Shown here: positions 1 through 55,543 of the stretch, one piece after another
How the letters are laid out: each line of letters starts with the position of its first letter
Numbering within the stretch: position 1 is the first letter of the stretch
Source of the DNA: Escherichia phage 241Ecol014PP
DNA length: 64,000 nucleotides
Reading direction: 5' to 3' (one strand)
Sequence record: OR062943.1
Program-made: the position numbers and the translations under genes
The notes under the pieces: generated by a model
What the model was told of the DNA's origin: nothing
Seen by the model: the letters and a program-made list of their open reading frames with translations, nothing else
Databases searched by the model: none

Positions 1-252
1 GCCAAAGGTGGTTCGACATCTAAAAAGAAAAAGAAAAACCCGAGAGAGGATGTTGGCCTTACTGTAACCACATGCCTTAACGGAGCTATCCTCCCAGAGT
101 CCACTATTTATCTTAAAAGCAAGCAATATACAGGCTTCTATAAGGTGATCACGGTGCATCATAAGGGCACCATAGAAGGTGGTGACTACACTACAGAGCT
201 TGGCCTTGGGGAAACAGTGGGTGGAGTTGTTGACAAAACTGAGGAGGTATAA
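1..252 (+). CDS. 3' end of an upstream structural gene, truncated by window edge
   Basis: Frame 1 is open from position 1 to TAA at 250-252; stop overlaps ATG of next gene; tail ...KVITVHHKGTIEGGDYTTEL...; function not assignable. Confidence 0.4.
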   Translation, partial: AKGGSTSKKKKKNPREDVGLTVTTCLNGAILPESTIYLKSKQYTGFYKVITVHHKGTIEGGDYTTELGLGETVGGVVDKTEEV

Positions 253-929
253 TGGCAATAAATAGGAAAGATGCTGCTGTAAGATCCTTTATAGAAAAAA
301 TAATGAGGGACTACCACACCAGTATCAGGGCCAGAGTTGTCAGTGTAGACTACAGTATCCCTTCTGCAGCCGTGCAGCCAATAGCTGAAACCACGTTTGA
401 TGACGGAGATGTGGAGAGATACCCTCTTATCTATGACGTTCCAATTCAGGTGATGTCTGCAAACAGCGGAAAGGCAAGGTTAACACTCCCTATTAAGGCT
501 GGAGATGTTGTAGGATTGCAGTTTTCAGAGAGAAATGAAAACAATAACGACGATCAACAAACTCACGGCCTGTTTCCAGGGTGGGCAATCACCTCTGTTC
601 ATTCAGACTCAAACGCCTTACAGATCGATCCTGATAACGTAGAGTTATGGAATGATAGGGTTTATTTTAAACTGACACCTTCTGGCGATTTTGAGCTTCA
701 AACACCTGGTGGGACATTACGGTGCGACAGCAGCGGGGAGTTTTCTTTCACTAACGGGTCTGCCAATTTGCGAGCTGCTGTGGATGGGAATATCAGAATG
801 AATGGTGCTACAATAGACCCATCTGGTAGAATTATAACTGCTGCTGGCGTGGATTTGGATTCATTCTATGCAGAATATAAAGGTCATACCCACTCTTGCC
901 CTGATGGCGAGACAAGTGGACCGCACTAA
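252..929 (+). CDS. baseplate central spike-like protein (gpV/gp138-like)
   Basis: 225 aa; RBS GAGGAGG upstream; N-terminal region ARVVSVDYS...GDVVGLQF resembles spike OB domains; C-terminal His-rich tip GHTHSCPDGETSGPH. Confidence 0.4.
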   Translation: MAINRKDAAVRSFIEKIMRDYHTSIRARVVSVDYSIPSAAVQPIAETTFDDGDVERYPLIYDVPIQVMSANSGKARLTLPIKAGDVVGLQFSERNENNNDDQQTHGLFPGWAITSVHSDSNALQIDPDNVELWNDRVYFKLTPSGDFELQTPGGTLRCDSSGEFSFTNGSANLRAAVDGNIRMNGATIDPSGRIITAAGVDLDSFYAEYKGHTHSCPDGETSGPH

Positions 930-941
930 TAGAGGGCTTTC

Positions 942-1658
942 ATGGCTACGCTTTATAGTGATATATTGATGGACCCACAGACAGGCGATTTGGCGATAGA
1001 CAAAGGTCTTGAGTTGATAGATTCAAACCAGGTAAGTCTGCGCCAGCGCTTGTGGATGAGGTTTAATACGTGGAAGGGGAGCTGGTACTTTGACGAACTG
1101 TTTGGCTTCCCTTATATGGACTTTCTCAGTAAGAAGGTCATGAAGACTGTTCTTGATAACAAGATCATGGAAGTGGCAAGACAAGAGCCGGATGTGCTAA
1201 ACATCATAAACTTCCAGTCTACCATGGACCGAAGATCGAGAACATACCAAGCGTTCTTTGAGGTTGTTACCAAAGAGAACGAGATTGTAAGGCTGGCTTT
1301 CGTAGGTCTTGATCAGTTCACCTACCCACAACCTGATTCTGGGACAACCTCTCTCTGTGATGATGAGGGTTGGATTAAGTGGGCTAATAAACTGTACTAC
1401 CTGATCAACTTCAGATTACCTAGAACCGGAGATGCCACATGGTGGAACCAGTATGCTGGTCCTGAGATGGAAAACCCGATCCCTGTAGGCTCTCTGTTGA
1501 CTCAGGATAAAGATCTGCTGATGACTGAGGCAGAACAAACCATTAACCGCAATACCTGGACGCTTGCTCCAGATGAGCGCGAATACTCTGGTGTTATTGC
1601 TACCTCCAATGATGAGGCTATTGCCAACCAGTCTGGTCGTGCTATTGATGTTAACTAA
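942..1658 (+). CDS. baseplate wedge-like protein (gp25/gpW-like or related)
   Basis: 238 aa; N-terminus ...SLRQRLWMRFNTWKGSWYFDELFGFPYMDF resembles baseplate wedge families; position after spike gene. Confidence 0.35.
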   Translation: MATLYSDILMDPQTGDLAIDKGLELIDSNQVSLRQRLWMRFNTWKGSWYFDELFGFPYMDFLSKKVMKTVLDNKIMEVARQEPDVLNIINFQSTMDRRSRTYQAFFEVVTKENEIVRLAFVGLDQFTYPQPDSGTTSLCDDEGWIKWANKLYYLINFRLPRTGDATWWNQYAGPEMENPIPVGSLLTQDKDLLMTEAEQTINRNTWTLAPDEREYSGVIATSNDEAIANQSGRAIDVN

Positions 1659-1667
1659 GGAGAAATC

Positions 1668-2336
1668 ATGGCTGTAGCTTATCCTACAATACCAATTCCA
1701 GATCTTGAAGATGCAGAAACAGTCCTGAGTGATGACTTCTTGGTTGTCAACCAGACTGATGGGACAAGAAAGGCTAAGATTGACGATGTTGTCAACGATC
1801 TTAGTATTACTAAGATAGTCTATTTCACAGAGGGTGGTTATCTTAAGAGCAAGAAGGACTTTGCTTATGACCCAGAGACTAAGCGCTACTACACGTGGAA
1901 CGGGGATTATCCTAAAATAATCCTACCAGACTCCACTGTAGAGGGTGCTGGGGGCGTGTCTGCAAATGCCTGGTCTGTTTTTGGTGAGCTTGCTGCAACT
2001 TCTTCTGGCAGAATAGTTGATTACGGATCTATCGGTGGTCAGCTTGATATGGATCTTGAAGTTGCGGATACCTTTAAGGTTCGACTAACTTCAAATACCA
2101 CAATCTCTTTTGAAAATCAAACAGAAGGTCTTGAAGGGGTGGAGAGAACTATAACCGTATGCATTACTCAGACCTCTGGCGGCAACAAAGTCTATTGGCC
2201 TGGTAATGTTAAATGGTCCTACGGAAGAGATCCTATCCTAACATTTACAGCTGGTGCAACAGATATTTTCAAGTTGGAAACCTACGACAACGGGTTAACT
2301 TGGTACGGGGCACTGATTATCGCAGGAGCTATCTAA
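1668..2336 (+). CDS. tail fibre/adaptor protein sharing N-terminal anchor domain with the 4971 fibre
   Basis: 222 aa; N-terminal ~80 aa (DDFLVVNQTDGTRKAKIDDVV...FTEGGYLK...DFAY) aligns with N-terminus of ORF 4971-8771. Confidence 0.45.
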   Translation: MAVAYPTIPIPDLEDAETVLSDDFLVVNQTDGTRKAKIDDVVNDLSITKIVYFTEGGYLKSKKDFAYDPETKRYYTWNGDYPKIILPDSTVEGAGGVSANAWSVFGELAATSSGRIVDYGSIGGQLDMDLEVADTFKVRLTSNTTISFENQTEGLEGVERTITVCITQTSGGNKVYWPGNVKWSYGRDPILTFTAGATDIFKLETYDNGLTWYGALIIAGAI

Positions 2337-2337
2337 G

Positions 2338-4935
2338 ATGCGTATTCAACATAACATTGATAACGTATTTCAGATGATTGAGGGGCACAGGAAGTGCCTC
2401 GATAACAACACAGGTATTACCAACACCCCTACACAAAATAAGCTAGTAAACCCTGATGGTCTTATAGCTGCAGGGTGGGCAGGTAATAAGATAAATAATG
2501 ATTGGGCAATGCATGAGTCCCAAGCTGTGTTGATTCTGGGATACATTGAAGCATACAGGGCATCGAAAAGCGATTTCTATCTGGATAGGGCAAAAGATGC
2601 TTGGGAAGCTTACAATAGTCATCTTCTTGGTGCATATGCTGTAGAAAGTAAAATGCAAAGATTGTCCCACTACCCTCTATCCACAGACGGGGTTCCATCA
2701 CATGGTGGGTTTAAAGATGTGGTGGTGTCTTTTACCAATGGTAGAGGAAAAATCCCAGCTGGATCTCCGACATGGGGGGAATACCTGGACAAGGCATTCC
2801 AAGCGTATAACGGTGTGTTAGGAAGAAACACTGTAGACTCTGATGTTTACGGTGGCACAGATGCTAACCCAGATTGGACAACATCCGGATTAAGTTGGTG
2901 GGTTGAGTGGTACATAGCATGGGATGGTAACCGCTATTGGGCTAACGGTAGCATAGCCGACAGTGGTCATACGTCTGTAGAGTTCGGCACAATCCAATTA
3001 CAAGATAAGGGTGTTACAGGCAGCCACAAGGTGACCTATTGTGTAAGATTACCTCAAGAGCAGGGTGGATCGGTGATACCTGCAGGATCCCCTGTAATTG
3101 TAAATCCTATAAACGTGGTTGCAGATAATCAAGCCCCGGAGTTGGACGGGGAAGAGATGTGGTGTGACGCTTGTTATCAACTCTACACCTTGACAGGTGA
3201 GGAAAAGTATTACACCGCGTTTGAACAGTCTTACAACAAGTTGCTTAATTTCAGTGATATAAACGCCTACGACAAACTGTTTAGAAAGACCACGTTGATT
3301 AAGGCACCGTTCACAGATGGTACTTGTCTTGTTGCAGGAACAGTTCCTGTCATGAGCAGGGACAGTGACGGGTATATCAATTTTAGAATGAACGCACGCC
3401 AGCCTTGCGAAATAATTCAAAAAGGGACTACATACAAAATAGGCAGAGATGCTGAAATTGTTATGAATTTCGGAGGAGAAGGTGTTCTGTTCCAGCCGCA
3501 TTTCATCCTTAATGATGGCAACAATAACAAAAAACAGTACAGGATAGGTGTCCCTTTTGGAGGTGCAGAGGTAACAGAAATAGTTGCCAAGGTTACTGAT
3601 TTCGTAGAGGTAGTTGGTAAAGACGGTAATCCGTATCTCTTACCTAAAGAGGAAAACATTGCCGTAAGCGGTGGTGCTAGTGTTAGTATGCAGTATGATA
3701 CCGACATTTACAACCACTCTGACAACTTCACCCGTTGTAATATAGCAAGAGGTAAAGTAACTTTCAATTTTGGAAGAGAGATTTCTTTAAACTCAGTAAC
3801 TTATCGATCAGATGATGAGATGGTAAGGGTCAAATTTCTTGACAAAGACAGGTGGTTATGGTATGCTGATCTATATGCCACTAATGGACAATGGATAACA
3901 GAAACTCTTACTCTAGGAGATTTCAAACTAGATCCGACACAGCCTCATCACACCGAAGAAGAGATTAAACCTTTCTTTGCTAATCCTAAGGGGCTCACCT
4001 CTGTAGATTTCAGCCTAAGCGACAGGCAGATAGGTAATGGCTTGTTTGATCTGTATTGCGTCAACACACTGCCGCAATTTTATATTGCAGATAGGGATGC
4101 TTATCTAATCTGGTTTAGCGTATGGATGGCAAGCAAGACAGAATCAACCGCTAAGGTTGGCGATTGCTATGTCAGAAACTACAAGCAAGGTGCATACAGG
4201 CACACACCCGGTGTGTTCCCTGCCGGAAAGGTGATAGATAAGGAAAACTATCTCTTGGAGGAAAGGCCAAATTGGCCCTACCCTGGCATGCAATACCCAG
4301 CAGTCTACTGCATGGGTGCAGAAAACATAGATCGCCATAGATTGTCAAATACAATAGGCTTTCTGTATGACGCTCAAGTCTGGTATAACAATACATTTAA
4401 GACAGAAGGTCCAGTTGCCTCGCGTTATGTATGGCAGAGAGGCAATGAAGGGTTGACTGGTTGGTGGGAGATGGTAGATAACTCTAAACTACAGTCAAGA
4501 TCTTTTGTTGCTGCGTGCCGCACAATATATGAGCTCAAGAAACATAAAGAACCTGTTGATGAAAGACTATTCCTGTTCTGCCAGAAATGGGCATGGTTCC
4601 TCAACAGATTCCAGTCATCTCATTCAGGAAATCTGCCTACAGACTTTAACACCTCTGGGGGATACTCTTATCAAGACAGAGGGGACAGGATGTGGGTGGT
4701 AGGTGAATGGCTTGCAGGTTGCTGCTGGCTAGGTCTGTGCGGGTATTCAGAGACAATACCTCAAATAGATATTGTTGTAGAAGCCTGTGTGAAGCTACTG
4801 CAAAAGCACCACTTCATTAATGGGGATAATATTTTAAACGGCTGCTGGGCAGTTTCTGATCCGGTTGGCTATCACTCTGGCGAAATCCTTCGCGGTCTGG
4901 GCCTTTATGCTCAATACCGTGGATTGTACCTTTAA
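2338..4935 (+). CDS. large tail-associated protein, possible glycoside hydrolase/depolymerase
   Basis: 865 aa, Trp/Tyr-rich; ATG 2 nt after upstream stop; enzymatic assignment speculative. Confidence 0.35.
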   Translation: MRIQHNIDNVFQMIEGHRKCLDNNTGITNTPTQNKLVNPDGLIAAGWAGNKINNDWAMHESQAVLILGYIEAYRASKSDFYLDRAKDAWEAYNSHLLGAYAVESKMQRLSHYPLSTDGVPSHGGFKDVVVSFTNGRGKIPAGSPTWGEYLDKAFQAYNGVLGRNTVDSDVYGGTDANPDWTTSGLSWWVEWYIAWDGNRYWANGSIADSGHTSVEFGTIQLQDKGVTGSHKVTYCVRLPQEQGGSVIPAGSPVIVNPINVVADNQAPELDGEEMWCDACYQLYTLTGEEKYYTAFEQSYNKLLNFSDINAYDKLFRKTTLIKAPFTDGTCLVAGTVPVMSRDSDGYINFRMNARQPCEIIQKGTTYKIGRDAEIVMNFGGEGVLFQPHFILNDGNNNKKQYRIGVPFGGAEVTEIVAKVTDFVEVVGKDGNPYLLPKEENIAVSGGASVSMQYDTDIYNHSDNFTRCNIARGKVTFNFGREISLNSVTYRSDDEMVRVKFLDKDRWLWYADLYATNGQWITETLTLGDFKLDPTQPHHTEEEIKPFFANPKGLTSVDFSLSDRQIGNGLFDLYCVNTLPQFYIADRDAYLIWFSVWMASKTESTAKVGDCYVRNYKQGAYRHTPGVFPAGKVIDKENYLLEERPNWPYPGMQYPAVYCMGAENIDRHRLSNTIGFLYDAQVWYNNTFKTEGPVASRYVWQRGNEGLTGWWEMVDNSKLQSRSFVAACRTIYELKKHKEPVDERLFLFCQKWAWFLNRFQSSHSGNLPTDFNTSGGYSYQDRGDRMWVVGEWLAGCCWLGLCGYSETIPQIDIVVEACVKLLQKHHFINGDNILNGCWAVSDPVGYHSGEILRGLGLYAQYRGLYL

Positions 4936-4938
4936 CAT

Positions 4939-4960
4939 AGGGGGCTGTTTGCCCCCTTTC
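4939..4960 (+). terminator. stem-loop GGGGGC-tgttt-GCCCCC with short T run; weak terminator or RNA processing hairpin
   Basis: 7-bp GC stem immediately after stop of ORF 2338-4935, followed by TTTC then RBS AGGAG of next gene. Confidence 0.3.
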
Positions 4961-4970
4961 AGGAGAAAGA

Positions 4971-7900
4971 ATGGCTGATATTAAAGTTGTCAGAATTGAA
5001 TCTCTTCCTGCCACTACCGCAGTGACAGAGGATGATTACCTGGTTGTTCAGCAACCAGACCTGACCCGTCGTGTAAAAATTGGCGATGTTGTCCATGTGG
5101 ATGGGACTGTTTCTCATGTAATCTCCTTTAAGGAAGGTGGTAAGTTAAACGGCCCAATGGATTTTGCCTACTTCGAAGAGGAAGACCTCTACCTGCGTTG
5201 GAAAGGCGAATTTCCCCACACTGTTCCTGCACTATCTTCACCGTACTCCGATGGTGGGATTACTGACGCTGCATGGATGGTATATACAGATCCGTCCTTA
5301 AGGGAGGAGCTGGAATCTACCATTGGCGCATCTATGATCATGACAGCCGAAGGGCAGTCTGTCCAGGATGTAATGGATGTTACTGTTCAGACAGCTAACG
5401 ATGCTAAAGCACTTGCACAGCGTGTAGATTTTGGTACAGTGCACACCGTAGGCGATGTTATTCACCTTGATAACTTTGTTGGCCCTGCAGTTATTGAAGA
5501 GGGAAGAACCACCAACTACCCTTCTGTAGCAGCTGGTGAAAAATTTCTGAACGGTGTGGTATCTCGCCGTGATACTACAACTGTTGATGGTATTTTCCGT
5601 GGCGCTACCACCGGAGCCATGTACACCATTGCAGTAACCAACGGTGTAGCAACAACGAAAAGAATAGCACTTCGTGATGAATTTAAACGCCTAGAGGCAA
5701 ACAACCCAACAAGAACAGTTATCCGTGCTGGAGATGATTTAAATACGGCAGGGTACTTGCAGCTTGATGCAACAGGCCGTTGGGGTATGTGGAACCAACA
5801 AACAGCTTCGTGGCAACCTCTTGCTATAGAGCAAGGCGGCACAGGGGCTAGAGATGCCGCTGGAGTCCGTATCAATATCGGTGCTTTCTATAAGCAACGT
5901 GCAGCCCTTGAGCCAAATTTCCATATCAATAACTTGACTGGTAATCAGGATGGTGTATACTACCAGCCGATGACTGCTTATGCAACTGAGGCAAATGGTT
6001 ACCCTGCAGGTTCTGGTGCTGGTCACTTGATTGTTTGGCAGAACAATGCTAACGGCGGTACAGGTTGTCGTCAGGAATACTACCCATTCTCTAACGTAGA
6101 TGTTTGGTATTTGAGAACCTATCAGGCCAACACAAATCAGTGGACTGCATGGCAGCCGATGGTTAGACCTCGTAACGATAATACCTTTAGATCGCACATC
6201 GGTCTTGGGCCTAGAAATACCCCTACCTTCGGGCACATTTACCTGTCTCAAAGTTCTGCTGATGTTAAGTCAGCCTCGGGTATTGTTAACGGGGACAAAT
6301 ACAGCGCTGACGGTGTCCTTGAGCATGGATATAGGATCTATTCTGAGGTAAGAAACGACAATAAGGCTTGGTTGACAATCCACCTGCACAAAGGTGCAAA
6401 AGGATCTGAAACTCATAAATATTTAGGTTTCCGCGAAGACGGCGTATTAGACTGCCCTAAATATATGCAGGTTGGGGATCTTACTGGTCAGCTGACAAAC
6501 TGGGGACTTGGAGAATGGATTCGTAGTTCAGGAGCAGAAAGAGGCTTCTGGGGGTCCAAGAAAGCCGCCAAGATGGTTATCTGGGATGGTGGGATGGACG
6601 AATCCGGTAACGGCACTCTGGAATGGGGTGTTTATAACAACCGGAAGGCCAAGTGGGAACCTCTACCTCAAGCCGCAGGTGGCACTGGGGCTACAACTTT
6701 AGCAGATGCTCAGAATCTGTTCAAAGTTCCTATAGCAGCAGGTGTAAAAGACTTCTTAACACTGCCAAGAACCGCAGGGATGGAAGATGGGAAATACTAC
6801 CCAATCATCGTTAGAACAGATCCGTATTACTCCCCTGCGACAGGTGCAGATATTACTATAGTCACCAGGTCTTCATATGGAGATGACCCTATGAACTGTG
6901 CCACCCTGCAGTGTCACTATAGAACTGGCGGCTGGTCGGACAGGGGAGACTCTTTCTACGGGGTAGTAAATTTCTACCAGAATGAAAAAGCACTTCTTGG
7001 GATGGTTGCTCCAACAAGGGGTAAACAAGAGTATGTTGCTTTCTATGCAGAGGCTCGTGCTTTCCCTGTCAGCATATACGCAAGTAGAAATGTTGTCGAA
7101 GTGTTTACCAGAGAGCAAGATTATCAAGTCGGCTCTGTAACAAACAATCAGGATGGGGTTAAGTTCGTTGCACCTCTTCAATCAGCAGATTTGAATCTTG
7201 CTATTCTTGGAGATAACAACACCAATACCAGACCTATTGTTGACTTCAAAGGTACTTCAGGATTCTACACTGGTGGCGGCACACAGTGGCACTATATAGG
7301 TTCTGCTGAACGCTATGCTGTGATGAGCAAAATGAATATGCCAAAAGTCGAGCTATGGGCAGACGGTCTTGACTATTTGTGCTACGGCAGTCCTAGAAAG
7401 GCGTTATTCTCTAATGCAGGATTCCAGTGTGCATCGGAAGGAACAGAGGATCTGATCAACAACACCTTTACCTCTAAATGTGGTAATGGTGCAAGACTGC
7501 AAGGCCAGGCAGAGTTCAGATCTACTCCGGAAGCTGGTCAAGTTATCGTTCGCGATGTTGTAGGTACAGCTCATAAGTTCTACAATTTCAACAAAGACGG
7601 CACATTTTTCCCTCCTGGGGGCTATGTTTGCCAGACAGGTGCTGACTGGAACAATCAGTTTGGTAATACAAACCCCTCCAAGATAATGGCTGGCAATGTC
7701 AACGGGCCGGAAGGTTCGATGGTTGTTGGCGGGGTGTCTGTAGCATTTTCTGGGAACTATGCTTTCCAAATGGCTGGCCGCCTTGATCAGTTATACACCA
7801 GATCTATCGAGGGTGGTAACCATAGAGCGTGGAACAAGGTCATACAACACAGAGGGCAAGGTCTGGGGATTAATGACCTTAACGACTACAAAGGGGATAG

Positions 7901-47348: not shown

Positions 47349-47376
47349 GCCCTGCCCGAAAGGGTGGGGCTTTTTG
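47349..47376 (+). terminator. rho-independent terminator (GAAA tetraloop); identical hairpin recurs at 59993
   Basis: GCCCTGCCC-gaaa-GGGTGGGGC then TTTTTGCATT. Confidence 0.7.
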
Positions 47377-47393
47377 CATTAGGAGACAGCAAA

Positions 47394-48158
47394 TTGAAAT
47401 TTATCTACAAAGAACACTACCACAAAGGTGTTGTGTGGAGTCTATTTGACGGATCTGGTGGTGCAGTCATTGACTGGGCAAAAGCTGGGTACCTGTGCCT
47501 GTGCTTTAATGCAGAAGGTGCTGATCACGGCAGTTATGCAGAGGTGATAACCGATCATCACAACATTCACTATGTGGATTATTGGATTGACCCATGGTTC
47601 CCTCAGGAAACTTTTTGCATGTACCCAGCTCCAGACTTTATTCTTGCATTTCCTCCGTGCACGCATTTAGCGGTATCGGGTGCTGCACATTTTAAGAAAA
47701 AGCTGGCTAAGGACCCCATGATCCAAATTAATGCTGTAAAGGATGCTCGGGTTGCGGAAGAGCTGGGAGAGATTTACGATTGCCCGTGGCATGTAGAGAA
47801 TCCTGTTGGTGTTATGTCCACACTGTGGCGCAAACCTGATTACCGTTTTCATCCTTCTGACTATGGCGGGTATTTACCGGAGGATGATGTAAACCCCTGG
47901 TTTCCTGAATTTATAGCTCCACGTGATGCCTATCCAAAAATAACTTGCGGCTGGATAGGTAATGGATTTATAATCCCGGCCACAAAACCTGTCCCGCAAA
48001 TAGTTGACGCGGTTAGTGGGTATTCAATGCAACACGCCAAGCTGGGTGGAAAGAGTGCAAGAACGAAGATGATTCGAAGCCTCACACCACGTGGCTGGGC
48101 AAAAGCCGTATTCTTAGCAAACGAGCCTGCAGTAAGGAGCAGAATTAATGGGAAGTAA
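47394..48158 (+). CDS. DNA (cytosine-5)-methyltransferase-like protein
   Basis: Start taken as TTG 47394 with RBS AGGAGA (track GTG 47364 lies inside terminator stem); motif I LFDGSGG, motif IV FPPCTHLAVSG, motif VI-like HVENPVG. Confidence 0.5.
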   Translation: MKFIYKEHYHKGVVWSLFDGSGGAVIDWAKAGYLCLCFNAEGADHGSYAEVITDHHNIHYVDYWIDPWFPQETFCMYPAPDFILAFPPCTHLAVSGAAHFKKKLAKDPMIQINAVKDARVAEELGEIYDCPWHVENPVGVMSTLWRKPDYRFHPSDYGGYLPEDDVNPWFPEFIAPRDAYPKITCGWIGNGFIIPATKPVPQIVDAVSGYSMQHAKLGGKSARTKMIRSLTPRGWAKAVFLANEPAVRSRINGK

Positions 48159-50226
48159 ATTTATGGCATCTGCATACAACCGTTTCGGTGAGCCAAACCC
48201 GGTTGCAACAAGATACAAAAGTGGGGGTAGTATGAAACGAGACTATCGTGATGAAAAAGAGGTTGAAACTGTAGAGACTGTTTTAGAAAATACTAAAATT
48301 GTCCCTGTCCCACAACAAAATATCGGTCTGATGGCTGCACAATATTTTGGTGTGCGATCAGCATTGTCCCAAGAAGACGGTGTGACAGTCACTGCAACAT
48401 ATTTCCCATATTACGACCGCTACGGGAATCTGTCCGGTTTCAAAAAGCGTGACTGGACTAAGCCGAAAGAGCAGAAAGGACACTGGTCTGTAGTAGGCAT
48501 CGTAAAGGCCAACTCCCAGATGTTTGGTCAAAAGTTGTGTGCATCTTCCAACAACCGTAAGCAGATTAACGTTTGTGAGGGGGAAGGCGATGTTATTGCA
48601 GCATGGCAGGCTGCATATCAGATACAGGTAAAAGGGATTCTCACCAACGCTAAAGCTCCGGCAAAGGTGAAGCAGTGGGCTAAAGAGGTCCAGGACGGGA
48701 TCGACGCAGTTATCAACGGTGGTGATCTGGCAGGAAAACCCTGCCTGCCTTTTGTTGGAATTAACTGTGGATGTGCAAACGCAGTAGATACTTTTGCAAA
48801 CAATGAGAAGTTTATCCGTAGCTATGGAACAGTTGTGCTGGCAATGGATAACGATGCAGCTAACGAGGTAGAAAAGCAAAAACACGTCATTAAAGGTGTT
48901 GAGGCAACTCACAATATCGCAGCATTTTTGATGGCTGATAACGTTTACCACGTAGAATATCCCGGTGAGGTAAACGATCCTGACGGTGTAAAAGATATCC
49001 GTGACATGCTGAAGGCTAAAAAGCTAGAAGATATTGTCAACATGTTCCGGCATCCTGTTAAATATGTACCTGATGCTGTGTCGGATTTAGAAGACTTCTC
49101 TATCGAGTCTTTGCGGAAAAAGACTTCCAACGGGGTGGATATCAGCGCAGAGTTCCCAAAACTGCAAAAAATGCTAAAAGGCTTGCACAAAGGGACACTC
49201 GTAATGCTTACAGGTCCATCGGGGGGCGGTAAAACAACTATAGCTAAAAAACTGGAACACTGTATTGCAAGATACCTAATGGACCCAACATGCCCGAAGG
49301 CTGATGACTACGAGGAGGATGATCGTCTATGCATGATCCATCTTGAGGAGGACCCAGAGGAAGCAATTAACTCCTTGTATGCAAACCAGTTGGGGTTCGA
49401 TGTTAAAGAGTTTGTTGAAGATCCTAGCCGGTTTTTAACTGATCAGGAACACGCAGAGATTCACCAATCATGGGCAAAAGCCGGAAAAATCAAAGTGTTC
49501 AAACATTTCGGGTCTATTCCGGTGGACGAGTTGATTACCAAGCTTAAGCAAATGGTTTGCCTGTACCATTGCCGTTATATTGTGCTGGATCACCTGTCCA
49601 TGGTAATTTCAGGGCTTAATGTTAAGGATGAGCGAAAAGAACTGGACATGGCTATGACCCAACTGGCTGCGTTTTGTAAGCAGTTTAATGTGTTTATCTT
49701 GGTGATCGCTCACCTCAAACGTACAGAGATTGTGCCCCCTAAGGACAAGGATGGTAACCCGTTACCTTTCTGGTATCCTGTGCGAAAAGAGAATTTGCGA
49801 GGATCGGCTGGGCTTGAGCAGTTGAGTTGGGTAGTCATAGGTGTCGAGGCCGAAGAAATGGTGGATCGTTCTCGTGGGCGTGTCCGTCTGGTAAGTCTTA
49901 AAAACCGTCCAGCAAAAACTTTAGGTATTGCTGACACTTTAGTTATGGACCCGCACACAGGTAAGTTCCATGATGCCAGTAATTGGTACTGGGACAAAGA
50001 AATGCAGATGTTTACAGACGGAGAAGGTGGGGAGGTTGTTTGGAGACCTCAGGCTATGTTTGAGGATCAGGAGCATGCAGTTGTAGAAACACCTGTTGGC
50101 AAGGTTGTGGCTGATAAGGTTGTAACTTCTACTGTTAAACCTGTTGACACGCAGGAAGACCTCCAGTACGATGATCCATCCTCTGACCCTGTCCCTGGTT
50201 TTGAGGATGATGAAACGCCTTTTTAA
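48148..50226 (+). CDS. primase-helicase (T7 gp4-like; toprim + DnaB-family helicase)
   Basis: 692 aa; RBS AAGGAG; toprim-like CEGEGD; Walker A GPSGGGKTT. Confidence 0.75.
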   Translation: MGSKFMASAYNRFGEPNPVATRYKSGGSMKRDYRDEKEVETVETVLENTKIVPVPQQNIGLMAAQYFGVRSALSQEDGVTVTATYFPYYDRYGNLSGFKKRDWTKPKEQKGHWSVVGIVKANSQMFGQKLCASSNNRKQINVCEGEGDVIAAWQAAYQIQVKGILTNAKAPAKVKQWAKEVQDGIDAVINGGDLAGKPCLPFVGINCGCANAVDTFANNEKFIRSYGTVVLAMDNDAANEVEKQKHVIKGVEATHNIAAFLMADNVYHVEYPGEVNDPDGVKDIRDMLKAKKLEDIVNMFRHPVKYVPDAVSDLEDFSIESLRKKTSNGVDISAEFPKLQKMLKGLHKGTLVMLTGPSGGGKTTIAKKLEHCIARYLMDPTCPKADDYEEDDRLCMIHLEEDPEEAINSLYANQLGFDVKEFVEDPSRFLTDQEHAEIHQSWAKAGKIKVFKHFGSIPVDELITKLKQMVCLYHCRYIVLDHLSMVISGLNVKDERKELDMAMTQLAAFCKQFNVFILVIAHLKRTEIVPPKDKDGNPLPFWYPVRKENLRGSAGLEQLSWVVIGVEAEEMVDRSRGRVRLVSLKNRPAKTLGIADTLVMDPHTGKFHDASNWYWDKEMQMFTDGEGGEVVWRPQAMFEDQEHAVVETPVGKVVADKVVTSTVKPVDTQEDLQYDDPSSDPVPGFEDDETPF

Positions 50227-50284
50227 TGTTTAACCAAGAGTGGGAGGGGTAGTACAACCGCCTCCCCTTTAAGGAGAACACTTT

Positions 50285-53200
50285 ATGAGCATGTATAGCT
50301 TCGATTTTGAGGCCTCCGGGCTTTTGGAAGACCCAGATCTTTATTACCACTGCGGCCTGTTTAAAGAGCTGAATAAGAACCGTTTTATGCTGTTCCTCCC
50401 TCTAAATGACCGCACACACTACTCCGAGGAGGATATAGAGAAGGCTAAGAACTTCATTCTGGCAAAGAAAACTCTTTATAAAGATTTTGAAGTTCGCATA
50501 GCAGATTTTTCGGAGTTGGAAGGTTGGCTTACAGGCAATTCCGACTGGTCACCAACAGCTTTGAACTGCCATAACTGCTACAGTTATGACTTTATGCTGA
50601 TGGAGAAATTATCCGGTATTCATTTTGATATGTTCCGTGATCCTAAATGCATGGGTACTATCAACGATCACCAGGTTAACCTGTTCGATACGTTGGCGAT
50701 GAGCCGAATCTTGTGGCCTGATCGCCCTTTACCAAAAGGTTGTCCGGACTCTGTATTCAACCCGGTTACTAAGAAAATGCAGCCTGTTGGTGCCCACGGC
50801 CTTATGGCATGGGGCTACGCCCTTGGTAACCAGAAAGTTCAAATTGATGACTGGCGTGATCTTCCGTTGTGGAAGTATGTGGATCGTGTATTCGAGGACG
50901 TTATCATCCAGGAGCTGCTCTGGAAAGAGCTGGTAGCGGAATCAAAAGGTGTATTCTACGGCAAATCTGACATGCAGAACTTTATGTACGATCCTGCCAA
51001 AGAGAAGCCGAAAGGGTTCAAGAAGATCACCTGGAAGAACGCATTACGCCGGGGTATGCTGCAGCACTTCCTGATGGAGCTGCAGGCCCGTCAGGGTGTA
51101 TACTTCGACATAGATGGAGCTATTGCTTTACGTGACCGTTGCGATGCGTGGATGAAAGAGATCGCTGATCGTGTTGAACCTCAACTTCCTTTAAAAGAGT
51201 TGTCAATGTCTCAGCGGCCCAAGTTCCCTGAAAAGCCGTTTAACCAAGATGGGACAATCTCCAATAATGGTTGGAAATGGTTAAAAGATAAGCTTGGCTA
51301 TCCTGTGGACATGAGTGCTTTAGAGTTCAAAGCCCCGCCTAAGCGAGCATTTACCTCCACAGGAGATGTCAGCAAGATGGGGATAAAATGGTGTGAAGAG
51401 ATGGGCTGCAAAGACCCCGATAAGATGGCTGATTTCTTGAGAGGCTATATTAAGGGCACTTCCACACCACACCCTTTACCTAAAGAGCTGATGGATCAGG
51501 CGATAAGTGATCTACAGCAGAAGCGAATGCCGGACTGCAAGATACCTATGAAAATCAGCAATCAGGACGACATTAAGCGATACCTGATCAGTGCTGGTTG
51601 GCTTCCGACAATGTGGAGAACTAAGGATGTAACTAAAGACAGCAAGAAGAAAGCTCTACCTGATGCAGATGTTGATGCACGAGTATATGCATATATGGAC
51701 GAGCTTTTAGAGTCAGAGTATTGTGATCTGATTATCAACTTCTGGAACAAAACTGATGCTAAGTTCCAGACAACCGTGCACAAGTTCCGAAGCTTTCCTA
51801 ACTCCGAAAGGATTAAAAAGGAAGTGTTCGGGAAAATACGTAGAAAAGCCAGAGCACTTATTACTTCTCCGCAGCTGAAAGATACGTTTGGACACCTATG
51901 CCCAAATCTTGAAAAATTGAACGGAGAGATGGCTAAAGATATCGTCTTGTGGTTATCATTGCGAAACCGCAGATCGGTCCTTGATCCAATCAAGGAGGAT
52001 AAGGTTGATACTGGTCTTCTTAATCACCCACGTTTGAAGATTGACCATAAGCTTCCTGCTAAAAGTTCTGGGTTAACAAACACTTCCCGACAGAAACACA
52101 GTATTTGTGCAAACATGCCTAAACCATCTCCTAAAGTGGTTATGGGTAAAGAGATGCGTAGTCTGTGGGGTGTTCCTCCAGGATACTTTGAGATCGGTAT
52201 TGACGGGTCCAACTTAGAGCAGCTTATCGGGGCTTGGGGTGCCTTTGAGTTCGACAACGGCCTGTATTATGATGTTGTAAGTAACGGCGATGCACACTGT
52301 TATTCAGGAGATACACAAATTCTCACGGAGAAAGGGTGGGTGAGGTTTGAAGATCTTGATCCGGGAACACAAGTGTTCCAGTACGATCACAACACCTCGT
52401 CGATGAACCTTGTTACTCCATTAAATTACGTTAAGCGTAGTTATTGTGGGGATATGTATCATTTCCACAACAGCAGTGTGGATTTTATGGTTACAGATCA
52501 ACACAGGATGCTGACCGTGGATCACAGAAGCAATAAATTGTTTGAAGATTTGGCAAAAGACCTGAAAGCAGGTAAAGGGTCTAATTCAGGAAGAAGGTTT
52601 ATCCATGCGGCAGAGTTTTATGGGAATACAACCTTATCTCCTGCCCAGATTAATTTGCTTATTGCTATTCACGATGATGGGCACTTGCATACAAATAAGG
52701 ACGGCAGCATCGTGTGCAGGATTCAGGTCGGGAAGGGCAGAAAAGTTGCAACGCTTTTAGATACTTTTTCTGCTCTAAGCCTTAGTTATGTAGAGCAGAG
52801 CGGGAAAACCACAAAAGGGGGCTTACTGGCGAGAAGGTTCCAATTCCACGTTCCGTCCTGGGTATTTGAGTTTTTGGACAGCAATAAGGATTTCACCTAC
52901 AACCTGATGGACCTTGATAAAGAATCTAAAAACCTGTTTATAGCTTCTTTATCTAACTGGGACGGATGGGTATCTTCCGAAGGTGGAAAAGTTGCCTACT
53001 ACTCTCAGTCCGAGTGCAGGAAGAAATCTGTAGAGGTTGTGTCTGCGCTGGCTACTCAGTGTGGTTTACGGAATAATACGGTGGCGATTCACAAAAAAGG
53101 TCGTTCCGTACAGCACAGAATCACGATTGGTAGCAAACAGAGAGCAGGGTTGCTGACACTATCTAAAGAGTCTGTCGAGGTGAGTGGTTCTTTGGTTTAT

Positions 53201-53677
53201 TGCGTTACCGTCCCTTCTGGAGCAATCATTGTGAGAAGGAATGGTAAAGTGGCAGTGTGCGGTAACTGTAATAACGCCAAAGCTTACTCTTCTGTAGCAG
53301 GCAAGGAGATTTCCCGTAACGATGGTAAGCCTGTCACGTATGGGGTTATGTACGGGGCACAAAAAGATAAAGTTGCAGATATGCTGGATATCTCCCCAGA
53401 GTTGGGGCAAAGGGTGATCGATGCACTTTGGGATGCCAACCCCGGTCTTAAGGGGCGCAAAGAGGATCTGGAGAAATTCTGGGAAGCAACAGGTAAGAAG
53501 TTTATCTACTCTTTTGATGGTCATGCTATCTGGACTCGATCTAAACACTCTTTACTTAATGCATACCAACAAAATGGTGGTGCATCGCTGTGTGACTTAG
53601 TTGGGATACTCATGCACCACCAAATGGTGAAGCGTGGGTGGTACGATGAAGGTGTTCGTCGTATTATTTATTACCAT
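50285..53677 (+). CDS. family A (T7-like) DNA polymerase, exon 1 (contains an in-frame intein)
   Basis: RBS AAGGAGAA; exo motif FDFEASG; motif A region IGIDGSNLEQL; after intein motif B KPVTYGVMYGA; ORF stops at 53683 before motif C, implying an intron. Confidence 0.8.
52298..53266 (+). mobile_element. intein (about 323 aa) with LAGLIDADG-type homing endonuclease domain, inserted between polymerase motifs A and B
   Basis: Begins CYSGDTQIL (block A) with MVTDQHRMLTVDH (block B, TxxH); ends ...VAVCGN followed by +1 Cys (CNNAKAY); internal LLIAIHDDGH and LFIASLSNWDGW motifs; host junction NGDAH/CNNAK parallels T7 NGDIHTKNQ. Confidence 0.7.
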
Positions 53678-53953
53678 AAATAACATTGTGGCTTCATAGA
53701 GTAATCTATGTCGAATAACCTCTTTAACTGCGGGAAGCCTAAACCTTATGGCAAGGTAATCCGCAACGAAGCGCTCAAAAGAGCGAACGCTCAGAGGCCA
53801 TTCCGAAAGGAAGTAGACCAGCAAGTGCGGTCGAAATGGGAGGATTCCTGTGGTTGCTTATCATAGGAATATGAGATGGTCCGATCCTACGTGAAAACGT
53901 ATGGCTATGCACGTAATGGTGCGGGGTAGCTTAACGACCTACCTGAACTATTG
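53678..53953 (+). mobile_element. ORF-less group I intron (276 nt) splitting the DNA polymerase gene just before motif C
   Basis: Exon 1 ends ...YYH (last nt U at 53677), exon 2 begins DEYQIQV at 53954 giving HDE motif C; intron last nt G at 53953; intron GUGG (53688-53691) can pair with exon CCAU (P1 with U.G); in-frame stops inside. Confidence 0.6.
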
Positions 53954-54307
53954 GATGAGTACCAAATTCAAGTCCCTGACACGCCTAAGTATAAGACTGT
54001 GTACACCTTCGACACAATTGAAGAACTGGAAGCATTTAAGGCAGAGCAGGAGGCCAAACTTCATGTGTTTGACGGTCATAAGTACAAAAAGGCACGCAAG
54101 GATGAGAACGGAAACGAAGTGGTTGACAGAGACGGAAACACGGTGTACGATCCTATCCTGAACGATGACGGAAAGCTTGAACTTATCTGGAGCCCTGTGG
54201 GTGAAATGGTGGTGCATTGCTTCTGGCAAGCTTCTAAAATGATGGGCGTCCCGTTCCAGATCACAGGTGAATACTTGTGTGGGGCTAATTGGGGTAGTTG
54301 CCATTGA
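53954..54307 (+). CDS. DNA polymerase exon 2 (motif C to C-terminal His)
   Basis: DEYQIQV...GEYLCGANWGSCH parallels T7 polymerase C-terminus HDEIQV...WAICH from memory. Confidence 0.7.
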   Translation, partial: DEYQIQVPDTPKYKTVYTFDTIEELEAFKAEQEAKLHVFDGHKYKKARKDENGNEVVDRDGNTVYDPILNDDGKLELIWSPVGEMVVHCFWQASKMMGVPFQITGEYLCGANWGSCH

Positions 54308-54327
54308 TCTGATAAGAGATATTTGCT

Positions 54328-54975
54328 ATGGAAGAATGGAGAAAACTGGTTGGCAGGGAGGCCAACTATGAAGTTAGCAGTAAAGGAAGGATTAAAAGGC
54401 TGTCTTACCTGAGGAAGTACAGTAACCAAACAGGTAAAGTTACTTTCAAAGCTGTCCCTGACAGGATTTTAAAAGGTAGCGTAGACAGTAGCGGTTACAT
54501 TCAAGTAAATGTAGATGGAAGATCGGAATTGCTTCACAGGTTAATTGCCGAGACCTTTCTAGAGCCTCCTTCAAAAGAGCTTGTAGAGGAATGTAAGGCA
54601 GCAGGGCTGGACTATGTGCCGATCAATCATAAAGACCATAACCGCCTAAACAATGCTGCTGACAACCTTGAATGGGCCTCGCCTTCAAAAAATGCACAAG
54701 ATGTGGACTACGACTACCATAAAACAAGAGGGGAAAGTTCATACTGTGCAAAACTTAAAGAGCGAGATGTTGACGAAATATTAAAGCTTTCCAAAACAGG
54801 TATGTCACAGCAAGCTATAGCAGATCTTTTCGGTGTTAATCAGATAACCATTTCCAATATCTTGACAGGTAGGAGTTGGGCATGGTACACTGGGATACCT
54901 AAAACCGCAAGGTGTAAAAACAAAAGGGGGAGATCCCCGAAAAGCATGTCTGAGCAAAATTTCTCTGTAAGCTGA
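54328..54975 (+). CDS. free-standing HNH homing endonuclease (NUMOD4-like N-terminus + HNH + C-terminal HTH)
   Basis: 215 aa; EEWRKLVGREANYEVSSKGRIKR; INHKDHNRLNNAADNLEWASPSKN; C-terminal MSQQAIADLFGVNQITISNIL. Confidence 0.75.
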   Translation: MEEWRKLVGREANYEVSSKGRIKRLSYLRKYSNQTGKVTFKAVPDRILKGSVDSSGYIQVNVDGRSELLHRLIAETFLEPPSKELVEECKAAGLDYVPINHKDHNRLNNAADNLEWASPSKNAQDVDYDYHKTRGESSYCAKLKERDVDEILKLSKTGMSQQAIADLFGVNQITISNILTGRSWAWYTGIPKTARCKNKRGRSPKSMSEQNFSVS

Positions 54976-55034
54976 TTGTCACTAATGTAAACTATCAACA
55001 CATGGAAGTGTTGTTGAGCAAAGAGGAGACTTTT

Positions 55035-55319
55035 ATGGTAGTAGAACCAACAAAAACATTTACATCTATGACTATCCCTGTTATTATGCAGGTGGAGTGT
55101 GTTCAGGTATCTCAAGTGTGGCCTGGCACCAAAATCCCAACAGGGCCTGATTTCTTTCAGGTTGGCAAAGTGTACAATGTCTGGAAGGCACCAGATTGTT
55201 ACCCTTTCATTAAAGATGACCGTGGGATGCTGTGGTATCTTGGAAATGATTTGACACTGCACCTTGGGAATGCTATTATTGCAGTATTCAGACTTAACAA
55301 GAAGGAGACCGATCAATGA
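55035..55319 (+). CDS. small protein, paralog-family member
   Basis: ATG 55035 with RBS AGAGGAG (track start 55002 less likely); FQVGKVYNVWKAPDCYPFIKDDRGMLWY. Confidence 0.4.
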   Translation: MVVEPTKTFTSMTIPVIMQVECVQVSQVWPGTKIPTGPDFFQVGKVYNVWKAPDCYPFIKDDRGMLWYLGNDLTLHLGNAIIAVFRLNKKETDQ

Positions 55320-55543
55320 CAACTTTGGTTAAAGCTACTTTTGTAGAAGAAAAGATGACAGACCTGTCCTTCTTTAAAGAAGGAAAGACCTACGAGGTTT
55401 ATTACGATAAAGATCGTGCAAACAAGATGATTAAAGACGAGGAAGGGATTGCCTGGTTTATCTCCCATCTGGCAAACGGTGAGTATCATATCTACGGAAC
55501 CACCCTGCTTGCCAAGTTTGTAGCTGTCGAAGAGGACCTATGA
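55316..55543 (+). CDS. small protein, paralog-family member
   Basis: 75 aa; FKEGKTYEVYYDKD...DEEGIAWF. Confidence 0.4.
   Translation: MTTLVKATFVEEKMTDLSFFKEGKTYEVYYDKDRANKMIKDEEGIAWFISHLANGEYHIYGTTLLAKFVAVEEDL

Follow-up and report, generated by a model that had tools for sequence, protein, structure and literature searches.

An intein, a group I intron and a free-standing HNH endonuclease gene at the family A DNA polymerase locus of Escherichia phage 241Ecol014PP

Results

The polymerase gene of an rV5-like phage is interrupted twice

Within a 64-kb stretch of the genome of Escherichia phage 241Ecol014PP (sequence record OR062943.1; hereafter the window), positions 50285-54975 hold a family A DNA polymerase gene that is interrupted in frame by an intein, broken a second time by a group I intron and followed closely by a free-standing HNH homing endonuclease gene (Table 1). 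All of the work reported here is computational. A megablast search with 50285-54975 against the phage collection returns 133 records, none of which spans the full query; the best of them are Vequintavirus Escherichia phages with ~94-97% identity. Because the best records are Vequintavirus, we take the locus to be the gene for the family A DNA polymerase in an rV5-like phage, and these matches place 241Ecol014PP itself among the rV5-like Vequintavirus, ~138-kb E. coli myophages, and not among the T7-like phages. The best solved relative of the polymerase is T7 gp5 (E 1.5e-13), such that the term 'T7-like', used in an initial annotation of this DNA, fits the enzyme and not the phage.

Predicted open reading frames (ORFs) divide the gene into a polymerase frame at 50285-53683, encoding 1132 residues that end in ...IIYYHK and a stop, and a TTG-initiated frame at 53951-54307, encoding 118 residues that begin L-DEYQIQV. 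Joining 50285-53677 to 53954-54307 in silico stays in frame and yields a 1248-residue precursor with the junction ...RRIIYYH-DEYQIQV..., and deletion of residues 672-994, the intein, leaves a polymerase of 925 residues. This processed protein equals in length the polymerases of phages DrSchubert and rV5_ev156, which are uninterrupted, and aligns with them from end to end, gap-free, at 98.3-98.4% identity. Since only the spliced, intein-free form matches uninterrupted homologs over their whole length, the earlier contention that the ORF predictions alone misdescribe the gene is borne out, and the correct product would require one RNA splice and one protein splice. An alignment of the processed polymerase with T7 gp5, one of the checks proposed at the outset, covers motifs A, B and C. 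It puts the intein between motifs A and B, after the His that aligns to T7 H506, and the intron between H653 and D654-E655.

Across the part of exon 1 that precedes the intein, identity is 92.9% to rV5 and 96-97% to the other four of the five relatives in the initial comparison. Sixteen amino acids distinguish the processed polymerase from that of DrSchubert, seven of them within the 23 residues that follow the intein site and two within the last seven residues of the protein. We read these nine as protein-level footprints of two DNA conversion tracts described below, one beside the intein and the other beside the HNH gene.

Table 1. Features of the polymerase locus of 241Ecol014PP, in coordinates of the window.
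Feature	Position	Strand	Evidence
Exon 1 of the polymerase upstream of the intein (N-extein; from the exonuclease domain through motif A; last residues ...NGDAH)	50285..52297	+	ORF; T7 gp5 alignment
Intein, 323 residues (969 nt): HINT domain with inserted LAGLIDADG endonuclease	52298..53266	+	Empty alleles, invariant residues, AlphaFold model, Foldseek
Intein key residues	C1 52298-52300; T66/H69 52493-52504; D127 52676-52678; D222 52961-52963; C302 53201-53203; G322-N323 53261-53266	+	
Exon 1 of the polymerase downstream of the intein (C-extein; contains motif B; last residue the His of HDE, motif C)	53267..53677	+	T7 gp5 alignment; intron-less alleles fix the end
C-extein co-conversion tract travelling with the intein; includes +1 Cys (53267-53269)	53267..53330	+	Identity contrast
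Group I intron, 276 nt, no endonuclease ORF	53678..53953	+	Rfam RF00028, empty-site alleles, covariation
Polymerase exon 2 (DE of motif C to the C-terminus, 117 residues and stop)	53954..54307	+	In frame after splicing; gap-free alignment
Recoded polymerase 3' end (GANWGSCH, CAT TGA), apparently imported with the HNH cassette	54281..54307	+	Identity contrast, stop-codon pattern
Spacer, 20 nt, with Shine-Dalgarno-like AAGAG before the HNH start codon	54308..54327	+	Read from the sequence
Free-standing HNH homing endonuclease gene, 215 residues: NUMOD4, HNH (His101 54628-54630), C-terminal helix-turn-helix	54328..54975	+	Pfam, I-HmuI match
Remnant of the original polymerase 3' end (GATTGTCACTAA), downstream of the cassette	54974..54985	+	Identical to the polymerase terminus of HNH-less relatives

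The intein combines a splicing domain with a LAGLIDADG fold

The segment 52298-53266 is missing to the base, by blastn, from phita32, rV5, HeinrichReichert, DrSchubert and rV5_ev156. The empty site in these phages reads ...NGDAH-QNNAEAYTK..., and the filled site of 241Ecol014PP reads ...NGDAH-(CYSGD...VCGN)-CNNAKAYSS.... The residues associated with protein splicing are present, namely C1, T66-D-Q-H69 (the TxxH of block B), N323 and a Cys at position +1. Among 129 aligned members of the intein family, C1, T66-x-x-H69, D127, K149, K197, D222, C302 and G322-N323 are invariant or nearly so, with H69 present in all 129. Two LAGLIDADG-type helices, LLIAIHDDG (D127) and LFIASLSNWDG (D222), lie ~95 residues apart, and both Asp residues are near-invariant.

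A word-indexed protein search with the intein returns no matches, and an exhaustive HMMER search was needed to recover the family; it finds ~7,750 representative proteins, and many of the matches run the full length of inteins inside ribonucleotide reductase (RNR) small subunits, primase-helicases, nicotinamide phosphoribosyltransferase (NAMPT) and other family A polymerases. Pfam and NCBIfam give weak Hint and intein N-terminal matches to this intein alone. The Pfam family LAGLIDADG_3 is matched by five of 22 homologous inteins (best E 4.8e-5) and also by the intein segments of full-length homologs.

A single-sequence AlphaFold model of the intein (predicted local distance difference test, pLDDT, 35) was discarded, and a model computed from a 22-sequence family alignment was used instead (pLDDT 93.9, predicted template modelling score 0.91). 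Foldseek matches this model to the TliVMA, PI-SceI and PI-PfuI inteins in the PDB with probability 1.00, E 1e-14 to 3e-12 and template modelling scores of 0.63-0.72, and matches its middle domain to I-DmoI, I-SceI and I-Tsp061I with E 4e-6 to 5e-5. The intein shares with PI-SceI, PI-PfuI and TliVMA a HINT domain interrupted by a double-motif LAGLIDADG domain and a position at a catalytic site of a replication enzyme. It differs from them in having 11-14% sequence identity, in Gly322, in a Cys rather than an Asp at block F position 4, and in its size (323 residues against about 450), without the extra DNA-recognition region of PI-SceI. Predicted fold and motifs together confirm the element as a LAGLIDADG intein, and the initial proposal of an in-frame intein of this kind between motifs A and B survives scrutiny by empty alleles, splicing residues, structural model and T7 gp5 alignment alike.

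The intein active site resembles that of an atypical class 3 intein

The penultimate residue of the intein is Gly322 and not His; Gly occupies this position in 120 of the 129 family sequences, and 109 of 128 homologs end in GN. Position 4 of block F is C302, invariant in 129/129 members. Block B ends in H69-R70-M71, with R70 at B:11; block F has no His at F:13; and the C-terminus is C-G-N, with C321 at G:5. Of the WCT triplet of class 3 inteins, the Cys at F:4, which is their branch-point nucleophile, is thus present, but B:12 is M71 and not Trp, and G:5 is C321 and not Thr (Ser, Thr or Cys across the family).

Among solved structures, the AceL NrdHF intein (PDB 6zgq; profile E 6e-11) is nearest in sequence; it is an experimentally proven atypical class 3 intein in which an Arg at B:11 compensates for absent His residues (PMC7891396). 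It shares with the 241Ecol014PP intein the H-R-M of block B, the Cys at F:4, the lack of His at F:13 and at the penultimate position, and a [T/C]-G-N end. In contrast to AceL NrdHF, which begins with Ala1, is naturally split, lacks an endonuclease domain, ends in T-G-N and has Ser at +1, the intein described here has Cys1, is contiguous, contains a LAGLIDADG domain and has Cys at both G:5 and +1. Class 3 is defined by the absence of an N-terminal nucleophile (PMC2807308, PMC7891396). Because Cys1 is retained, as it is in 124 of the 129 family members, the intein does not belong to class 3 by the published definition.

The absolute conservation of the block F Cys suggests that this residue has some role, and on sequence grounds the start of splicing could be assigned to Cys1 or to Cys302, an ambiguity that extends to the whole of this large family. 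We tentatively entertain, as a possibility short of likely, that the intein represents a large and essentially uncharacterised clade that combines an AceL NrdHF-type active site with a retained Cys1 and an [S/T/C]-G-N terminus. Were the block F Cys a working branch-point nucleophile despite Cys1, splicing would proceed by a class 3 or a hybrid mechanism, the line that sets class 3 apart, its missing N-terminal nucleophile, would be blurred, and an easily handled E. coli phage system would be available to study it.

Rarity and identity point to recent spread of the intein

Only six records of the phage collection, of ~116 related ones, contain the intein. Its identity to the copies in YP-6 and Mangalyan is 99.3-99.6%, with flanks at 93-97%, and is 99.4% in two further records and 99.0% in one more. 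A rare element that is at least 99.0% identical in five of its six records shows the pattern of recent invasion, not of old fixation.

The 64 nt that follow the intein have 97-100% identity to intein-bearing phages and 64-69% to intein-less ones. Since this tract closely matches only intein-bearing phages, the intein arrived with a piece of foreign C-extein, and the +1 residue itself, Cys in the foreign tract, is Gln in the empty alleles. The identity among the five records and the 64-nt tract lend indirect support to site-specific cleavage of the empty allele by the intein endonuclease. In the most likely course of events, the intein would have cut an intein-less polymerase gene during co-infection and been copied in together with ~64 nt of donor C-extein that supplied the +1 Cys.

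A group I intron splits motif C

The Rfam group I intron model RF00028, searched as initially recommended, matches 53668-53903 over its full length (model positions 1-253) with 64.7 bits against a gathering threshold of 50 (E 4e-14), and is the sole match above gathering in the whole window. In the intron-less phages DrSchubert and rV5_ev156 the DNA runs ...TATTACCAT directly into GATGAG..., with zero bases between the flanks (CAT/GAT), and several close relatives match a junction-spanning protein query as one unbroken 519-nt piece. Because the intron-less alleles are contiguous at the predicted junction, the intron is exactly 53678-53953. Its position relative to T7 gp5 is between H653 and D654-E655, that is, inside motif C (H/DE), and not just before the motif as the initial annotation had it; the intron itself stands, by Rfam, empty sites and covariation.

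Helix P1 (53674-53679 paired with 53686-53691) includes a U-G wobble at the 5' splice site, between U53677, the final base of exon 1, and G53688, and this wobble is kept in all five homologs compared. The terminal intron base is G53953, directly before exon 2. On inspection by eye, the guide sequence shows no convincing P10 pairing with the first bases of exon 2. Introns occupy the same point in JEP1 (328 nt), TH18 (317 nt), Klebsiella phage KP12 (343 nt) and Vibrio phage K412 (254 nt), and these four score 70-91 bits with RF00028. We examined covariation across these four and the 241Ecol014PP intron at 64 base pairs in ten helices, including the P7 pseudoknot strand. Pairing is retained in 99.4% of cells, both sides have changed in 26 of the 64 pairs, and one of the compensatory pairs falls in P7. 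Controls in which the partners are slid give 34-41% paired cells and at most six compensatory pairs, and none of 500 shuffles reaches the observed values. The compensatory changes across five homologs identify the intron as a ribozyme under structural selection.

The intron is predicted to remove itself from the transcript and so to join the His to the Asp-Glu of motif C, with the ligated exon junction of the spliced RNA reading ...UAUUACCAU-GAUGAGUAC.... In the unspliced RNA an in-frame stop (AAA TAA) stands two codons into the intron.

This prediction has to be weighed against a split gene that works without splicing, in which the exon 1 product and a second protein started at 53951 would together make up the polymerase. 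A TTG-initiated frame does exist at 53951-54307, one intervening sequence of phage CB7 stayed unspliced in reverse transcription PCR (RT-PCR), and Aeh1 NrdA, split by mobE, is cited as a precedent (PMC7344957). Yet the TTG is nothing other than the last three bases of the intron, with no Shine-Dalgarno sequence upstream; the break would fall between the His and the Asp-Glu of a catalytic motif; intron-less relatives encode one continuous protein; and the intervening sequence is a complete group I ribozyme whose helices are kept by compensatory changes across genera. We therefore give the two-polypeptide alternative almost no credence and retain RNA splicing.

A 52-residue ORF at 53708-53866 (+) lies wholly within the intron, overlaps the ribozyme core and has no similarity to endonucleases; it is probably spurious and not a gene. 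The description of the intron as 'ORF-less' fails to the letter and is fair in substance, because that one frame shows no endonuclease similarity and overlaps the core. The same frame is the 'hypothetical protein' rv5_gp222 of the rV5 RefSeq record, in which gp221 and two separate 'DNA polymerase' coding sequences are likewise by-products of the unrecognised intron.

Two intron lineages circulate in the genus

The 276-nt intron has at least 99% identity in 22 records and 100% in rV5, LL12 and YP-6, with exons around the identical introns that differ by 2-5%. A second lineage, ~85% identical to the 276-nt form, occurs as a 328-nt ORF-less version in JEP1 and as a version of ~843 nt in Mangalyan and HeinrichReichert, where ~514 extra nt in the P6 loop carry an HNH ORF of 168 residues. 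Of ~116 records whose polymerase C-terminus is at least 90% identical to that of 241Ecol014PP, ~70 (roughly 60% of the genus) have an intron at H/DE.

Annotation of the interruption is uneven. Records of the BASEL collection give the polymerase as a two-part join, and the BASEL paper set the intron boundaries by comparison; many other GenBank records present two 'DNA polymerase' fragments or 'hypothetical proteins'. The original rV5 paper lists a polymerase of 775 residues and mentions introns only for the terminase; the 775-residue protein corresponds, by our gene model, to exon 1 alone.

The HNH gene lies in a cassette at the end of the polymerase gene

The protein encoded at 54328-54975 exceeds the Pfam cut-offs for NUMOD4 (34.0 bits, cut-off 23.4) and HNH_3 (28.5, cut-off 24.8), and matches a helix-turn-helix below it (21.2, cut-off 24.6). 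Its only sequence match in the PDB, a weak one (E 0.004), is I-HmuI (1u3e), which is thus the closest solved structure and shares the order NUMOD4, HNH, C-terminal helix-turn-helix; I-HmuI is encoded by an intron, whereas the gene here is free-standing. The initial annotation had placed an HNH gene 20 nt after exon 2, and both the assignment and the distance are correct.

The gene belongs to a cassette of ~680 nt (54296-54973). YP-6, Mangalyan, rV5, HeinrichReichert, DrSchubert and rV5_ev156 all lack this cassette. Its DNA is found in just one other record of the phage collection, phita32, at 97.3% identity, and the two HNH proteins are 98% identical. The last 27 nt of the polymerase gene (54281-54307) have 100% identity to phita32 and 83-88% to HNH-less relatives. 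HNH proteins of ~50% identity lie directly after the polymerase gene in Seunavirus, Mydovirus and related Klebsiella, Salmonella, Cronobacter and Raoultella phages, and the spacers of these homologous cassettes are similar to the 20-nt spacer of 241Ecol014PP. A further homolog follows the polymerase gene of Vibrio phage PWH3a-P1, whose polymerase is ~30% identical over a 173-residue C-terminal query. By sequence comparison this HNH lineage tracks the 3' end of family A polymerase genes across distant phages, in at least three genera of Vequintavirinae and in one Vibrio phage. A 215-residue HNH protein after the polymerase gene of Vibrio phage K412, a candidate homolog by length and position, was ruled out as unrelated by BLASTP.

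Because the recoded polymerase terminus and the spacer of 241Ecol014PP resemble the type found in Klebsiella phages, they suggest that the cassette was imported from another genus together with ~27 nt of donor polymerase gene. The free-standing HNH protein and the intron-borne HNH protein of Mangalyan are 33% identical (E 3e-15), and appear to be members of the same family and not recent copies of each other.

Two observations concern the surroundings of the cassette. JEP1 has no HNH cassette, but the end of its polymerase gene (JEP1 piece 2153-2182 against 54278-54307) has the GANWGS coding variant of the two cassette-bearing phages together with the CAC TAA of non-carriers; this terminus could have been left behind when a cassette was lost, or could be a conversion tract that is only partial. 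HNH-less Mydovirus and Seunavirus have a GC-rich, terminator-like hairpin just after the polymerase stop codon (GGGGCTTCGGCCCC, followed in Mydovirus by a T-run), which is absent from that position in genomes with the cassette, and insertion may change transcription termination after the polymerase gene.

The HNH gene tracks the stop codon and not the intron

We compared nine loci that carry this HNH lineage, and compared stop codons at 18 loci (eight Vequintavirinae carriers and ten non-carriers). The polymerase gene ends in CAT TGA in 8/8 of these carriers and in CAY TAA in 10/10 non-carriers. Four of the nine carriers have an intron at H/DE (241Ecol014PP, phita32, K54_rec6 and AV124), and in the other five H/DE is uninterrupted (SPLA5a, EspYZU14, Ro1, NDO71 and PWH3a-P1). 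In Seunavirus, the 90 nt around H/DE are identical in the HNH-minus Salmonella phage 40 and the HNH-plus EspYZU14, and in a trio of phages from this genus the carrier-specific differences are concentrated in the last 36 nt of the polymerase gene. A corresponding comparison in Mydovirus was dropped, since the carriers Ro1 and NDO71 have a different type of exon 2 (HDEIQVQ...), which confounds it.

On the simplest reading, the target of the HNH enzyme and the changes that would confer immunity lie at the polymerase stop codon, the left edge of the cassette, and the gene spreads by intronless homing. Because the lineage sits at the stop codon with or without an intron, this reading is favoured over a partnership with the intron of the kind known as collaborative, or trans, homing, in which the HNH enzyme would cut the intron-less H/DE, the intron would protect its carrier, and repair would copy intron and HNH gene together. 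The layout seen here, in which the intron is ORF-less and a free-standing endonuclease gene follows shortly after the interrupted gene, is the textbook one for that pathway; reported cases include F-CphI, paired with the psbA intron of cyanophage S-PM2, and one other phage system (model reviewed in PMC3984707). Both Vequintavirus genomes with the cassette, 241Ecol014PP and phita32, also have the intron; an HNH gene of the same family inside the P6 loop of relatives' introns resembles the proposed end point of the pathway; and I-HmuI-type enzymes reportedly cut both alleles, so that identical H/DE sequences in carriers would be compatible with it. Against a partnership stand the five carriers with an uninterrupted H/DE, the identity of that site in Salmonella phage 40 and EspYZU14, and the location of the carrier-specific changes ~350 nt downstream of it. 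The co-occurrence of intron and HNH gene in two of two genomes carries no weight, because roughly 60% of the genus has that intron anyway. F-CphI differs from the HNH enzyme described here in belonging to an Endo VII-like nuclease family (PMC6083498), and also in that the present lineage occurs as often beside an uninterrupted polymerase gene and is accompanied by changes at the stop codon and not at the intron site. We regard collaborative homing as unlikely and intronless homing of the HNH gene as the better account of this locus.

The three elements occur in varying combinations

DrSchubert and rV5_ev156 have none of the three elements, rV5 has the intron only, and phita32 has the intron and the HNH cassette. 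The intein is accompanied by the 276-nt intron in YP-6, by the 328-nt intron in JEP1 and by an HNH-bearing intron in Mangalyan; NHEP1 has the intein and apparently no intron, as judged from a match span of 3,735 nt. Among the combinations seen, only 241Ecol014PP has all three. Because their combinations vary among relatives, intein, intron and HNH gene are taken to move independently.

The same patchiness could arise by ordinary recombination and deletion among co-circulating phages if the elements were three fixed leftovers with dead endonucleases. The homing-cycle model predicts decay after fixation (PMC1654191); the intron here has no endonuclease, and the existence of a 328-nt ORF-less version of an HNH-bearing intron fits loss of the ORF; and the intein misses the Pfam LAGLIDADG_3 threshold. 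The recent-invasion pattern of the intein, in 6 of ~116 related records and at least 99.0% identical in five, runs counter to this, as does the retention of all the family-invariant LAGLIDADG residues, D127, K149, K197 and D222, and so does an HNH ORF that is intact, 98% identical in protein to that of phita32 and still in possession of the HNH motif His. A collection of relics is in our judgement quite improbable, and independent mobile elements account better for the locus.

Other features of the window

A primase-helicase gene (48148-50226; DnaB_C and AAA_25 by Pfam) lies upstream of the polymerase gene. Upstream of it in turn, a 264-residue ORF at 47364-48158 (+) has no Pfam match at E up to 0.001; its annotation in relatives varies between a Dcm-like cytosine methyltransferase and a homing endonuclease. 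An ORF that runs from 63514 past 64000 (+) and begins MGIPVKDRK... has 36% identity over 140 residues (tblastn E 4e-21) to the HNH protein downstream of the K412 polymerase gene, and probably represents another free-standing homing endonuclease gene, whose HNH type differs from that of the one at 54328. A tRNA scan of the window finds no genes, and a promoter and terminator scan of 50000-55400 gives the same counts as in shuffled sequence.

Sixteen 'Campylobacter phage' records (MG065635-MG065690), 15 of which list Campylobacter jejuni as host, match the locus, with ~96-97% identity among the matches listed. By sequence they look like rV5-like coliphages, and the host label appears doubtful.

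Discussion

The experiments in silico described above make it very probable that a single essential family A polymerase gene hosts three independent selfish elements, and that the working enzyme is recovered in two steps. In the first, at the RNA level, the 276-nt intron would remove itself and join the His to the Asp-Glu of motif C; on RNA left unspliced, translation would stop after two intron codons, and the resulting polymerase would lack motif C. In the second, the 1248-residue precursor would excise its 323-residue intein, joining ...NGDAH to CNNAKAY... to give the 925-residue polymerase. As for mobility, the intein, whose two-motif LAGLIDADG domain keeps both catalytic Asp residues, would carry its own means of spread, and the intron, lacking an endonuclease, would depend on passive transfer by recombination or on the help of an endonuclease acting in trans. 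The HNH gene most likely homes alone to the 3' end of the polymerase gene and not in partnership with the intron.

Several points weigh against this interpretation. The evidence is wholly computational: it shows the element boundaries, folds and families, their polymorphic presence, the conversion tracts and the covariation of the RNA, and from these the splicing of RNA and protein, the endonuclease activities and the sites of cleavage are deduced. The intein has no Pfam LAGLIDADG_3 match even at E up to 5, so that the endonuclease assignment depends on its conserved motifs together with the fold predicted for it. The chemistry of the intein may be non-canonical, because Gly322 replaces the penultimate His and Cys replaces the Asp of block F. 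The target of the HNH enzyme is derived from a correlation in 18 genomes, and the lack of immunity substitutions at H/DE would not be strictly decisive if what is reported of I-HmuI-type enzymes, that they cut alleles with and without the intron alike (PMC3428280), applies here. Finally, JEP1 lacks the HNH gene and has part of the recoded polymerase terminus; some of the recoded-end signature can therefore exist without the cassette.

Group I introns were reportedly found by Bonocora and Shub in 2004 in the polymerase genes of the T7-like phages PhiI and W31, and the ORFs of these introns are said to lie in P6a. In E. coli Pol I numbering, we take 'site 881' to be the His of HDE. The PhiI and W31 introns are located at polymerase 'site 881' (PMC3428280, Pf-WMP3 intron paper) and, from this published numbering, their site appears to be the same as the one occupied here. 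Like the introns in the family A polymerase genes of PhiI, W31, Pf-WMP3, SPO1/SP82 and CB7, that of 241Ecol014PP is of the self-splicing group I type and interrupts a conserved catalytic part of the enzyme. It differs from those of PhiI and W31 in having no endonuclease ORF and in residing in a ~138-kb myovirus and not a podovirus; relatives of 241Ecol014PP do have an HNH ORF in the P6 loop of the intron, comparable to PhiI and W31.

The closest parallel to the whole locus is Certrevirus CB7, of the same subfamily, in which two HNH-bearing polymerase introns splice by RT-PCR, a free-standing HNH gene (CB7_54) adjoins the polymerase gene as here, and inteins reside in other genes (PMC7344957). 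With a similar arrangement published, backed by RT-PCR, and with the intron already given as a join in some GenBank records, the unusualness of the 241Ecol014PP locus was at first overrated. The designation of a mobile-element hotspot was justified and, if anything, understated, as relatives have up to two HNH-bearing introns together with an HNH gene on each side of the polymerase gene. In Klebsiella phage K54_rec6 (locus piece 1-5136) the polymerase gene is in three exons, both intervening sequences bear HNH genes, and further HNH genes lie directly upstream and downstream, for a total of four endonuclease genes and a heavier invasion than in 241Ecol014PP.

All three kinds of element are established already: phages carry group I introns in their family A polymerase genes, LAGLIDADG inteins occur in replication proteins, DNA polymerase I among them, and free-standing HNH genes adjoin such genes. 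The locus is a known type of selfish-DNA hotspot, correctly recognised and ordinary in kind. What is new is the intein at this polymerase site in Vequintavirus, on which we found no paper, and the exact three-way combination.

Automated annotation gets this polymerase gene wrong, and part of the value of the present analysis lies in fixing that annotation. The intein active site is a secondary point, open to mutagenesis. More broadly, Vequintavirus offers a natural series at one locus, comprising the empty site, two ORF-less forms of the intron, an intron with an HNH gene in P6, and alleles with and without the intein and with and without the HNH cassette. As these are easily grown E. coli phages, the series is suited to co-infection crosses on homing, on the length of co-conversion tracts and on interference between neighbouring selfish elements, and the same series could address how endonuclease genes come into introns.

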